NCBI GenBank assembly: GCA_965215565.1
Contig: CBDCDZ010000004.1
Span: forward strand, 3,264,001 to 3,328,000
Source: Trueperaceae bacterium
Lineage (GTDB): Bacteria; Deinococcota; Deinococci; Deinococcales; Trueperaceae
DNA length: 64,000 nucleotides
Reading direction: 5' to 3'
Positions 43,746-49,383 of the stretch are shown here, piece by piece; positions within the stretch are counted from its first letter, which is position 1, and every line of letters begins with the position of its first letter. The notes under the pieces are model-generated. The model searched no databases, was not told the origin of the DNA, and saw only the letters and a list, made by a program, of their open reading frames with translations. The translations under genes were made by a program, and so were the position numbers.

Positions 43746-44621
43746 AGACCTCTTGCAAAAGTCATGAATCGAGGTTGGCGTTGATGAGCCCGGCGATGAG
43801 GTTGAAGCGTAAGGAGAAGCGCTTGCGCCTATTACGGTAAGTTTCTTTGAGGATACGCCAGATCTTGAGCGAACGAATCACATGTTCTACCGCGATGCGG
43901 AAGCGTCCTAGAGCGCGGTTGTGTTGTTTGGCTTCATCACTAAGCTCACCGCCCTTAGGCTTTTTGACGGGCAAGCAGGTCTGTGGATGACGCGTTGCTA
44001 AGCCTTGATAGCCGCTATCAGCGACGTACCAGACTTCAGGTTTACACCTAGGGGCTGTTTCTTTGAACAGCTTGTAGTCGTGCTTGGGACCTTTGGCGTG
44101 GGCTGTTGAAAGAATCCTCGTGTCACTTGCGTCTACCAGCACTTGACTCTTCAGCGTGTGGCGCTGCTTTTTTCCGCTAAAGTAACGTCGCTCCTTTTTT
44201 TGGGCTTCTCAATAGGCGTCTCGGTGACATCAATCAAGACGACAGTCCACTCAATCTCTTCCACCTCGCGCCTTTTAGGTAAGCTGAACTTGCCTGAAGC
44301 GATGAGTACGTCTTCAATCCGTGTGATGATCCGGTTCGCTGTGGACTCGTGCAGTCCGTAACTCGCCGCAATATGAAACTGCGTCCTGTATTCGCGCCAG
44401 TACGACAGCGCTAAGAGCAGTTTGTCCTCCAAGCTGAGTTTGCTTGTGCGTCCCGCCTTCTTCTTCTGCCGTTCAGCTTCTCCTAGAACGTCGAGCATCT
44501 GTTTGAACACACCAGGCTTGACGCCTGTCAAACGTCTGAACCCTTCTGGCGCTAGTCCTCTAATCTCTTCGTATCGCATAGCCTTACTTTGCAGCTATAT
44601 GTCTACTTTTGCAAGAGGTCT
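43746..44621 (-). mobile_element. IS5-family (ISL2/IS702-like) insertion sequence
   Basis: 17-bp perfect TIR AGACCTCTTGCAAAAGT; 3-bp target duplication AGT (43743-43745 and 44622-44624). Confidence 0.92.
43762..44579 (-). CDS. IS5-family DDE transposase, two ORFs joined by a -1 frameshift
   Basis: ORF1 HTH ...IDVTETPIEKPKK; A7G at 44184-44191; -1 frame YFSGKKQRHTLK...ADSGYQG...RIAVEHVIR. Confidence 0.88.
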
Positions 44622-47359: not shown

Positions 47360-48289
47360 ATGAACGACGTGGACGAAGCTGCGCTGCCGCAAGGACTCTC
47401 CCTTCGTAAAAAAGGGGAGAGCTTAGAGACGGTCTCCTCGAAAGCCATCGAGGTGCAGCTTCTGGCGGCGGGGCAGGGCGTAGAGATTCTTGAAGGAAAA
47501 TTGGGTAAGGGCAAGCGAATAACGCTCGTCCCTTCGGGTAAAGCGCTAGAGACATACTATATTTTGGAGGGACAGTTGCGTAGCGATAGCGATGCTGCCG
47601 CCAGGTCTATAGCTGTGGATGCGGGAGATTACCTCGTGACGGAGTCGCTAGCAGAATCTTACACCCTACTCGCGCAAACTGACGTTCGCTTTCTCTACTT
47701 CACCTCACAACCCACCTTTCACGAGATAAGCGAAGAGTTGGGCGATCTGATGCGGCTCGCCGTCGAAGTCGAAGTCAAGGACGGTTACACCGCCGAGCAT
47801 TGCAGGCGGTTACAGGTGCTCTCCTACGCGGCGGGACAGGAACTCGGCTTGGCGCAAGACAGGCTCTACCTTTTGGATTACGGCGCATATTTACACGATG
47901 TAGGCAAAGTCAAAGTGCCCGCCAACATCCTGCGCAAGCCCTCCACGCTGACCCAAGCGGAATGGGCGCTGATGAAAAAGCACCCTACGTTCGGGCGCGA
48001 ACTGCTCGAGAAAACCTACCTTAAAAGAGCCGGCGTCATCGTCGAACAGCATCACGAGCGTTTAGACGGAAGTGGCTACCCCCACGCACTCTCCGGGGAG
48101 GACGTCCTCATCGAGTCCTATATCGTCGCCGTCGCAGACGCCTACGACGCGATGACCACAGACCGCCCCTACCGCCGCGCCGCGCCGCCAGAGCAAGCGT
48201 TTATCGAACTTAGGAAATACGCCGGGATATACTACCCGAAAGAGGTCGTGCGCGCCTTTATTTCGGTTGTGATGAGAAAAGCGCTGTAA
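47360..48289 (+). CDS. cupin-domain + HD-GYP cyclic-di-GMP phosphodiesterase
   Basis: N-terminal ETYYILEGQL...AGDYL beta-barrel; HC.R, LHDVGK, HP, HHERLDGSGYP, ADAYDAMTTDRPYR. Confidence 0.9.
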   Translation: MNDVDEAALPQGLSLRKKGESLETVSSKAIEVQLLAAGQGVEILEGKLGKGKRITLVPSGKALETYYILEGQLRSDSDAAARSIAVDAGDYLVTESLAESYTLLAQTDVRFLYFTSQPTFHEISEELGDLMRLAVEVEVKDGYTAEHCRRLQVLSYAAGQELGLAQDRLYLLDYGAYLHDVGKVKVPANILRKPSTLTQAEWALMKKHPTFGRELLEKTYLKRAGVIVEQHHERLDGSGYPHALSGEDVLIESYIVAVADAYDAMTTDRPYRRAAPPEQAFIELRKYAGIYYPKEVVRAFISVVMRKAL

Positions 48290-48300
48290 TACCAAAGTGA

Positions 48301-48331
48301 TTTAAGGGTGTCACAAAGTGACAGCCTTAAA
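48301..48331. terminator. palindrome after the HD-GYP gene (terminator or operator)
   Basis: TTTAAGG.TGTCAC-AAA-GTGACA.CCTTAAA. Confidence 0.5.
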
Positions 48332-48772
48332 CGCTCTATGAGCGTAACTTCTAACGTCCTCACATTGTGACACCTCCTTTTCAGTCTGGTATAACACTAA
48401 CAATCTGCGAACACTCAACCAAAACAAACTGGACGCTGTTACGGTTCTGCGTGACGCTTCTCCACCCTCTGAGCGCTCGGGCGGTACGCCGAAGCGTAGA
48501 CTTTTTTGGTACTTGCGTACTCCCTCCTAACTATTGAAAGCGGTATTTCTATACGCTGACGCCGCACAGTTCAGCCGTAAAGTATGAGAACGCTTTTTAC
48601 GTTAATAACTTCATAAGGCCCGCTCCAATCGGATAAGAAGAATCTCACGCACTATTAAAAAAGCTTCTATGAGTTCTCAGTGTGCTCGATGTCACTCGGT
48701 TTCATCTTTGTGAAAAGTCCGCCACGGAGTATTTCAGTACCCATGATACGTTGTGTTTCGAGGTTGATAAGC

Positions 48773-48870
48773 CTCATCGGAAGCGACGACTTCTGTCCCG
48801 CAAGGAGCTTTGCTAAAGGCTCTTCTGGGCGCTTGGGACAGAAGAAGCTAGTAGCGCAACCGGCCGGGAC
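48773..48870 (+). ncRNA. c-di-GMP-II riboswitch aptamer
   Basis: CGGAAGC-GACGA-CTTCTGTCCC...TGGGCGCTT-GGGACAGAAG-AAGCTAGTAGCGCAACCGGCCG follows the class II layout (GGAA...GGGCRCUU...AGUAGYGCAACCGRCC) with pseudoknot GCGCT/AGCGC. Confidence 0.85.
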
Positions 48871-48935
48871 GCTCTTCCGGACAACTTGAAAAGCTTTGGA
48901 AAACCGGAGCACGCCATATCAGGGAGGATATGAAA

Positions 48936-49067
48936 ATGAAAAAGTCACTCATCAAAGCGTTGGTTCTTGCTCTTACTCTTACTGCGTTTGGTACAGTTTC
49001 GACAGCGAGCGCTGCCGAAGGTTCGGACAAGGCTCCGTCAGTTCAAAAGTTTAGAGTCAACTGCTAA
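48936..49067 (+). CDS. 43-aa secreted peptide precursor 1 (Phr-like architecture)
   Basis: GGGAGG RBS; MKKSLIKALVLALTLTAFGTVSTASA-AEGSDKAPSVQKFRVNC*. Confidence 0.85.
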   Translation: MKKSLIKALVLALTLTAFGTVSTASAAEGSDKAPSVQKFRVNC

Positions 49068-49087
49068 AGATTAAAAGTTCACCAACG

Positions 49088-49119
49088 AACTCCTCTACGA
49101 AGACGTAGAGGAGTTTTCT
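49088..49119 (+). terminator. terminator after peptide 1
   Basis: AACTCCTCTACG-AAGA-CGTAGAGGAGTT-TTCT. Confidence 0.8.
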
Positions 49120-49204
49120 CTTACCTCTTTTTTGCTGTGAAGTTTTCCACATTGTGGTTGACGCCCTGCAGACGAAATTTAGGGGTAAAAGAGAGAGGGT
49201 ACAC

Positions 49205-49330
49205 ATGAAGAAACTCACAAGCTTAACGCTCGTTTTGATGCTGGCTATCTGCGGTTTTTCTGTGGCGTCTGCGGGTGCTGCATCTTCAGACGGTGAGCCG
49301 TCAACTCAGAAGTACAGAGTCAACCGTTAA
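49205..49330 (+). CDS. 41-aa secreted peptide precursor 2 (paralog of precursor 1)
   Basis: GAGAGGG RBS; MKKLTSLTLVLMLAICGFSVASA-GAASSDGEPSTQKYRVNR*. Confidence 0.85.
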   Translation: MKKLTSLTLVLMLAICGFSVASAGAASSDGEPSTQKYRVNR

Positions 49331-49350
49331 GGCTGTAAGCAACATACTCG

Positions 49351-49383
49351 GGCGTCTCCGCGCAGAAGCGGAGGCGCTTTTTT
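49351..49383 (+). terminator. terminator after peptide 2
   Basis: GGCGTCTCCGC-GCAGAA-GCGGAGGCGCT-TTTTT. Confidence 0.85.

Follow-up and report, generated by a model that had tools for sequence, protein, structure and literature searches.

Two micro-peptide genes, P1 and P2, lie downstream of a gene for a cupin–HD-GYP protein in a Trueperaceae genome and, judged on sequence conservation, they are real genes encoding predicted Sec-type precursors under purifying selection. P1 is situated directly behind a predicted c-di-GMP-II riboswitch, the linkage of such putative receptor genes to genes for predicted secreted partners recurs across paralogues and across phyla, and the peptide tail matches the tail of a family of longer, apparently secreted proteins found in the same slot. 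The explanation that best accommodates these observations, and one that we consider rather probable, is that the exported tail is released, re-imported and bound by the metal-free cupin, which would set the c-di-GMP level, with feedback through the riboswitch.

Peptide genes, riboswitch and putative receptor

The features discussed below are listed here by their positions in the window (the whole 64,000-nucleotide stretch of DNA that was analysed). G000 denotes this genome, which its gene content and relatives assign to Trueperaceae, and G001 and G002 the other two species of the genus.

47360-48289, plus strand: cupin–HD-GYP protein, putative peptide receptor and predicted c-di-GMP phosphodiesterase; 309 amino acids, cytoplasmic
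48285-48400, no strand assigned: palindromic repeat element of ~110 bp, REP- or MITE-like; 10 blastn matches in the genome; inverted repeats I1 and I5
48620-48769, plus strand: conserved 5' region (promoter or leader, of approximate position); conservation between G000, G001 and G002 is strong here and lacking further upstream
48770-48873, plus strand: c-di-GMP-II riboswitch aptamer with enlarged loop; RF01786, 43.8 bits, E 1.4e-7
48864-48880, plus strand: hairpin CCGGGA..TTCCGG, candidate expression platform; competes with the aptamer closing stem and is present in the MFE fold
48936-49067, plus strand: P1, 43 amino acids; signal peptide and 17-amino acid propeptide with the end PSVQKFRVNC
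49088-49115, plus strand: terminator-like hairpin after P1; perfect 12-bp inverted repeat
49136-49163, plus strand: conserved element upstream of P2; TGTGA-N6-CCACA and TTGACG (-35-like)
49205-49330, plus strand: P2, 41 amino acids; signal peptide and 18-amino acid propeptide with the end PSTQKYRVNR
49350-49379, plus strand: intrinsic terminator after P2; 12 pairs, 8 of them G-C, and a U tract; present in G001 and G002

The sequence-only reading had described P1 and P2 as secreted micro-peptides whose C-terminal tail is under selection, and its description of the genes was borne out in each particular; it overlooked the riboswitch at 48770-48873 and the connection with the upstream cupin–HD-GYP gene. 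An SD sequence precedes each ORF (GGGAGG at 48922-48927 for P1, GAGGG at 49195-49199 for P2), both n-regions contain lysine and are followed by hydrophobic cores (best 12-residue KD 2.17 in P1 and 2.68 in P2), an A-S-A site is found at residues 24–26 of P1 and 21–23 of P2, and a hairpin lies 3' of each gene; the signal peptides were judged by rule (n, h and c regions) and are hence predicted. An alternative in-frame ATG of P1, at 48930, is just 2 nt from the SD. In a six-frame translation of the 4.49-Mb genome the pattern PS.QK[FY]RVN occurs in two places only, P1 and P2. Each of the three species in the genus carries both genes, which in G001 and G002 are intact, in syntenic position and with the tail in frame, and three pairwise comparisons for each gene gave dN/dS values of 0.11–0.31 (P1) and 0.14–0.43 (P2), which supports selection on a tail whose export is predicted by rule.

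The variants V/T, F/Y and C/R are not tied to either gene, exchanging freely between P1 and P2 from species to species; the two peptides thus probably form one signal class. Since the terminal residue switches between Cys and Arg among orthologues, the Cys is dispensable and no thiolactone or disulfide is implied. Neither the peptides nor the longer partners described below had any match above a curated cut-off in Pfam or NCBIfam: for the peptides, Pfam gave nothing under E 0.1 and NCBIfam only sub-threshold matches to the N-termini of unrelated secreted proteins, whilst the best ESM Atlas scores, 0.85 for a long partner and 0.77 for P2, were both below the useful range.

The riboswitch aptamer ends 62 nt upstream of P1. 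Its alignment spans the whole RF01786 model with a score below the gathering score of 53.5, and its loop carries an enlargement of about 21 nt; the 3' core is exact, without mismatch, and the loop GGGCGC can pair with GCGC, a pairing for which other copies carry a GCAC/GTGC variant. Equivalent aptamer sites pass the cut-off at L033 (69.1), at L035 (64.4) and at another locus (57.5), and the degenerate copy in G002 went unreported at E<=1. Because several copies share the insertion seen in the window, ending GCTAAAGGCTCTTC, and have low Rfam scores, a family-specific variant of the aptamer is suggested. No sigma-70-like site was found on the plus strand of the conserved 5' region by the promoter scan.

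The hairpin that competes with the closing stem is conserved at own1238, L033 and L034, and G002 carries a compensatory change (CTGGGA..TCCCAG). The pyrimidine arm of this hairpin is able to base-pair with the SD, pointing to a translational OFF switch. Among 9 of 13 leaders for which folding could be computed, predicted accessibility of the SD went down in six, stayed equal in two and went up in one (in L092 and L096 the placement of the 5' strand is uncertain), lending the OFF direction weak support; the folding z-score of the whole leader, -1.42, was not significant. Across Trueperaceae, 13 of the 62 regions examined have a c-di-GMP-II 3' core in the interval from receptor to partner, two of them ahead of a long partner. 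All nine perfect c-di-GMP-II cores in this genome precede exported proteins, and riboswitch control alone therefore does not make a peptide a ligand. The other c-di-GMP-II riboswitches of G000 (C4:2483145-2484498, 2505947, 3168323, 3833873 and 4293659; three in one cluster) all stand ahead of secreted (surface) proteins or lipoproteins.

P1 and P2 are probably transcribed separately from the receptor gene. The terminator scan picked out the hairpin after P1 at its equivalent position in G001 and in G002, but not in the window. Upstream of P2, the CRP-like TGTGA-N6-CCACA (49136-49151) is largely conserved, and G001 has a promoter-like site (TTGACG-18-TAAACT) whose G002 equivalent falls below the promoter-scan threshold. 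Relative to both species, G000 has a 29-nt deletion at 49158-49185 that adjoins the sequence CTGCAGAC, repeated in G002; since the deletion removes the -10-like box, P2 may be poorly expressed in this strain. The palindromic repeat at the end of the receptor gene is unlike the G001 sequence and missing in G002, depth over it is raised in both runs compared, and it probably stands outside the peptide system. The two runs, which consist of contigs of unstated type, reveal strain variation only. Further away, two short minus-strand ORFs at 43762-44579 look like what we take to be the halves of an IS5-type transposase.

The product of the upstream gene combines a predicted beta-barrel (residues ~23–115) with a helical HD-GYP domain. 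Pfam assigns it HD_5/HD alone (PF13487, E 3e-28, 99 bits against a cut-off of 27), and Foldseek matched the predicted structure to 4MCW (E 1.6e-11) and to the cupin 5BY5 (E 1.9e-7). The HD-GYP residues are complete (H147, H179-D180, K183, H208, H231-H232-E233, G237-x-G239-Y240-P241, D260, D263, R269-x-x-R272), comprising the HD dyad, HHExxDGxGYP, the distal Asp pair and the Rxx(R/K) motif. The protein thus resembles the binuclear enzymes PmGH (4MCW) and PA4781 (4R8Z), which share its HD, HHExxDGxGYP and RxxR residues and are its top Foldseek matches, but differs from them in its N-terminal sensor, a His-less cupin. It has no transmembrane segment, as the highest 19-residue hydropathy is only 1.0. 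Homologues are fused to GGDEF, GAF and TPR domains (TPR in P0010 and P0012), and the context of riboswitches and of GGDEF fusions (P0010, P0012, P0053, P0070) supports c-di-GMP hydrolysis as the predicted activity.

The barrel has the double-stranded beta-helix fold of cupins, and the homologues P0005 and P0058 match Cupin_2. Cupin metalloenzymes have a His/His/Glu/His site; at these positions neither the window protein nor the consensus has a His, Glu64 being the sole residue retained. As E64 (100 of 102 aligned sequences) and E42 (97 of 102) are conserved in this His-less cupin, a binding pocket rather than an enzyme is suggested. Among paralogues the cupin diverges faster than the HD-GYP domain (30–61% against 59–70%), as is normal for a sensor domain, and this difference is given no weight here. 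A tyrosine in the N-terminal loop, Tyr143, appears from its placement by motif to occupy the position of PmGH E185, and in the main text of a survey of HD-GYP proteins a tyrosine there marks the binuclear, pGpG-producing group (10.1101/2021.11.05.467447).

Partners of the putative receptor within and beyond Trueperaceae

The genome holds five full-length cupin–HD-GYP paralogues, four of which have an adjacent signal-peptide ORF of 41–43 amino acids; the same ORF filter fired near 12 of 300 random positions. The tails at the four are QK[FY]RVN[CR], NIFRVNR, NPFRFDN and GFKISN, the last present twice in its precursor, and another short precursor repeats the unit GAIATK seven times. Across the phylum the cupin profile matches 34 of 364 genomes, all within Trueperaceae, and 223 clusters were matched among 50%-identity representatives.

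Trueperaceae receptor regions numbered 62, and 56 of these have an intact receptor; three with a broken receptor (L042, L048, L117) and three at contig ends (L114, L116, L118) were left out, and L049, where the cupin is missing, stood outside the scan for short partners. With partner types labelled by hand, 19 of the 56 have a short partner only, 23 a long partner only, two have both and one has a fused remnant; the remaining 11 lack any partner within about 1.2–1.5 kb. As the loci are related, these counts overstate independence; in a receptor tree (a quick version with weak deep branches) tails follow clades, and kin share labels, a pattern that we do not take as co-evolution. Four strict-filter candidates were discarded by eye (L039 +682, L105 +1074, L116 and L047 minus strand), and the L047 peptide may belong to the adjacent 800-amino acid gene.

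The unpartnered paralogue (G000 C4, near 1575200-1578200; L044–L047) is divergent from an 810-amino acid gene without a Pfam match, beyond which a conserved secreted peptide of 38–39 amino acids is encoded. This may be another receptor–peptide pair, or the paralogue may be an orphan receptor reading peptides in trans. A candidate for a separate peptide system, on sequence grounds, is seen at C4:1216112-1216240 (plus strand), where a predicted 42-amino acid secreted peptide ending GRSNVWAG is encoded divergently from a protease-like ORF with tandem GRSNVWAG repeats.

The long partner in Trueperaceae is a secreted protein or lipoprotein of 93–106 amino acids (two types carry a lipobox-like Cys) with 79 homologues and no Pfam or NCBIfam family. 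Its structural model comprises helices, a beta-hairpin and, after an invariant D-P, a less confident tail; a fold search with the model gave a best Z of 3.2, which is uninformative. From 28 distinct pentapeptide tails of long partners, with no short peptide in training, we built a matrix. When 5328 ORF ends of the genome are scored with it, FRVNC is placed within the top 0.09% and YRVNR within the top 0.34%; sixteen of 22 short peptides reach the top 1%, and six do not fit. Long partners ending DPFRVSR and DPFRFNR exist, and where long and short partners share a locus their tails agree (DPFRFSD and NPFRFDN at own3830; DPFRFNE and NPFRFS, the latter twice, at L041). Because their tails match the long-partner matrix, the micro-peptides look like minimal versions of the long partner, reduced to signal peptide and tail. 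This genome has a single long partner, at another locus than P1 and P2.

Several individual loci vary this arrangement. In L038 and L039 the divergent short peptide known from own3830 is reduced to a remnant, apparently frameshifted and ending RFDN, on the minus strand upstream of the receptor; the long partner is intact. In L086 and L091 TPR and GGDEF domains precede the receptor in one fused protein (~956 amino acids; compare P0012), after which come a riboswitch and a long partner with the end DPFRFNR. At L103 the HD-GYP end of the receptor, its last helices lost, runs in frame into the mature long partner; in this 70%-complete genome the fusion is probably a deletion or an assembly artefact.

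A search seeded with Bacillales receptors returned at least 80 loci, some of them from cultured species of Neobacillus, Paenibacillus and Peribacillus. Among the matches listed, an adjacent ORF ending in [IV]DP plus 3–9 amino acids is found at 59 of 61 loci with a strong cupin match, at none of six with a weak match and at two of 13 without a match, both of the latter being unrelated ORFs; the strong-cupin loci listed are mostly from Bacillota, with Thermotogota, Spirochaetota and one Trueperaceae. Of HD-GYP loci without a cupin match just one in 72 has a partner, its contig ending short of the cupin; flanks of 600 nt on either side are available for only 32 of the 72, and two further loci were unparsed. 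In metagenomes a partner accompanies three of six cupin loci, mostly on short contigs, one partner being just 80 amino acids long.

Outside Trueperaceae the partner is an unnamed secreted protein of 80–260 amino acids that ends in [IV]DP and a short tail, with the consensus [IVL]-[RK]-[VI]-[VI]-G for the tails among the matches listed. Profile similarity between Bacillota-type and Trueperaceae-type long partners is weak (probability 32.5%, E 5e-4, 26 columns), and two Bacillota loci, L217 and L220, bear the Trueperaceae-type motif. Taken together, partners form a series of lengths: 230–260, 120–170, 93–106, 80 and 41–46 amino acids. At L212 (Thermotogaceae) two tandem long partners lie on the opposite strand downstream of the receptor, echoing the tandem P1 and P2. 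A c-di-GMP-I riboswitch above the cut-off directly precedes the long partner in 12 of the 40 loci scanned (of the 61 among the matches listed). As class I and class II are unrelated RNAs and both precede the partner, the partner gene appears to be under c-di-GMP control.

A proposed peptide circuit and its rivals

In the circuit that we favour, signal peptidase would release a 17- or 18-mer from the P1 or P2 precursor, and a second cut would free a tail of 5–7 residues, about K-[FY]-R-V-N-[RC]. The tail is the likely active unit, since partners of 41–260 residues share only a signal peptide and a hydrophobic-Arg/Lys-hydrophobic tail. The putative receptor is cytoplasmic, so the tail must either re-enter the cell or act ahead of export; of the two, release and re-import is the more consistent with the tandem copies and with tails that differ between paralogues. 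An oligopeptide ABC importer would return the tail to the cytoplasm (the genome encodes six SBP_bac_5 peptide-type binding proteins, and 25 ORFs with a GGDEF motif), where it may bind the acidic, metal-free cupin (E42, E64) and so switch the binuclear HD-GYP domain that would convert c-di-GMP to pGpG. The riboswitch would close the loop, probably by stopping peptide synthesis at high c-di-GMP, and the secreted surface proteins under the genome's other c-di-GMP-II riboswitches are the likely output. Were the peptide to inhibit the enzyme, its accumulation would raise c-di-GMP until the riboswitch stopped the signal, giving a self-limiting, density-triggered attachment switch; were it to activate the enzyme, the loop would be positive and dispersal favoured.

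The cytoplasmic location of the receptor would also suit a cell-autonomous monitor, in which the tail meets the cupin before export or after envelope proteolysis in the same cell and c-di-GMP reports the state of secretion or of the envelope, not cell density. Long partners with a lipobox-like Cys would remain anchored in the membrane, and a folded body, predicted for long partners ahead of the free tail, is unneeded in a diffusible signal. Against this, tails have diversified among the paralogues of a single genome and some occur as tandem copies, which is better explained by specificity groups and multi-copy release, and we regard such a monitor as unlikely. Similarly improbable, in our estimation, is that the peptides never contact the phosphodiesterase and are c-di-GMP-controlled exported products, such as surface, matrix or antimicrobial factors or ligands of an unlinked membrane sensor. 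In its favour, exported proteins also follow the remaining riboswitches of the genome, the receptor gene is probably transcribed separately from the peptides, and riboswitch-controlled small proteins with a role of their own are described for Clostridioides difficile (PMC13724677). Co-regulation of this kind does not account for a partner that tracks the cupin rather than HD-GYP domains in general (59 of 61 among the matches listed against 1 of 72) and that stays adjacent, whether upstream, downstream or divergent, in most cases at loci without a detected riboswitch.

The coexistence of matching long and short tails at own3830 and L041, together with an upstream short copy that is apparently frameshifted in G001 and G002 whilst the long one is intact, raises the idea that short peptides are decoys, jamming or tuning receptors that normally read the long partner. 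The short form is, however, the sole partner in 19 of 56 loci, and the one long partner of this genome lies elsewhere, making a decoy role very improbable. We attach still less weight to P1 and P2 being Phr-type ligands of an unlinked RRNPP/TPR receptor: Phr precursors are similar in size and layout and some receptor homologues are fused to TPR domains, but Pfam scanning of six proteins of the window detected no TPR family, no Phr family match was found in Pfam or NCBIfam, and the fixed neighbour is the cupin–HD-GYP protein, whose long partner has the matching tail. Two further candidates were rejected. A ribosome-arrest leader peptide was discounted given the downstream or divergent position of the partner in Trueperaceae. 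AgrD-type peptides have an invariant Cys or Ser for ring closure and an AgrB partner; here the terminal Cys alternates with Arg, the signal peptide is predicted to be cleavable and no AgrB-like neighbour was present among the ORFs listed.

Release and re-import of the tail may also be framed more broadly, as a multi-phylum peptide system of which no part is homologous to a known one. A secreted carrier with an [IV]DP-linked C-terminal pentapeptide, perhaps freed at the Asp-Pro bond, would deliver a tail for re-import to a metal-free cupin gating a c-di-GMP phosphodiesterase, with both riboswitch classes feeding back. The Trueperaceae carrier would then have shrunk to a Phr-like precursor of 41–46 amino acids, arriving by convergence, and from another origin, at the layout of Rap-Phr, and would offer several specificity channels per cell. 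We put this fuller scheme forward tentatively, as quite possible.

Relation to described systems

The sequence-only reading had also likened the terminal pentapeptides to Bacillus Phr peptides and inferred a pheromone role. A pheromone-like role is indeed the best reading and a fairly probable one, but Phr-type identity is not upheld: the likeness is an analogy only, as no TPR/RRNPP receptor is linked and the tail resembles that of the long partner of cupin–HD-GYP proteins, not Phr. The Arg at position 2 on which the comparison relied is present and is common to the long-partner family (hydrophobic-Arg-hydrophobic) as well.

RRNPP(A) systems include Rap-Phr, NprR-NprX, PlcR-PapR and AimR-AimP. 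They share with the present loci a Sec-dependent precursor of ~40 amino acids, a C-terminal 5–7-mer, an adjacent cytoplasmic receptor, paralogous cassettes with divergent tails and a peptide gene with its own promoter. P1 and P2 are, by rule (n/h/c regions and a conserved tail), small Sec-exported propeptides with a C-terminal active unit, and the tandem tail units of some short precursors recall multi-copy signal precursors. The adjacent gene does not encode a TPR peptide receptor, and no Phr, PapR, NprX or AimP match was found in Pfam or NCBIfam. In contrast to RRNPP(A) systems, the putative receptor is a cupin rather than a TPR protein, the predicted output lies with a c-di-GMP phosphodiesterase, a c-di-GMP riboswitch precedes the peptide gene, the host belongs to a Deinococcota family and most family members use a secreted partner of 80–260 amino acids.

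Unlike typical RF01786 and RF01051 riboswitches, that of the window would control a signal-peptide micro-gene beside a phosphodiesterase. The nearest parallel concerns the CD1980.2 family of C. difficile, multi-copy small proteins encoded behind c-di-GMP riboswitches and repressed by c-di-GMP, which act as membrane-associated sporulation activators and for which, in contrast to P1 and P2, the portion of the paper available describes neither a cupin–HD-GYP link nor a cleaved signal (PMC13724677). The word 'cupin' is absent from the main text of the HD-GYP survey, whose supplements could list the architecture (10.1101/2021.11.05.467447). No description of a cupin–HD-GYP/peptide system was found in the literature searched, a set outside which most subscription papers lie.

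If the favoured reading holds, the system is new in kind, since neither its receptor fold nor its output nor its precursor is homologous to those of described peptide systems, although its logic is familiar. To our knowledge, the known intracellular receptors of peptide signals are TPR proteins acting on transcription or phosphorelays. The series of partner lengths suggests a route to pheromone precursors in which a larger secreted protein loses all but its signal peptide and tail, and a peptide-reading cupin that sets c-di-GMP would, if true, define a new class of receptor and connect peptide signals directly with the second messenger of biofilms.
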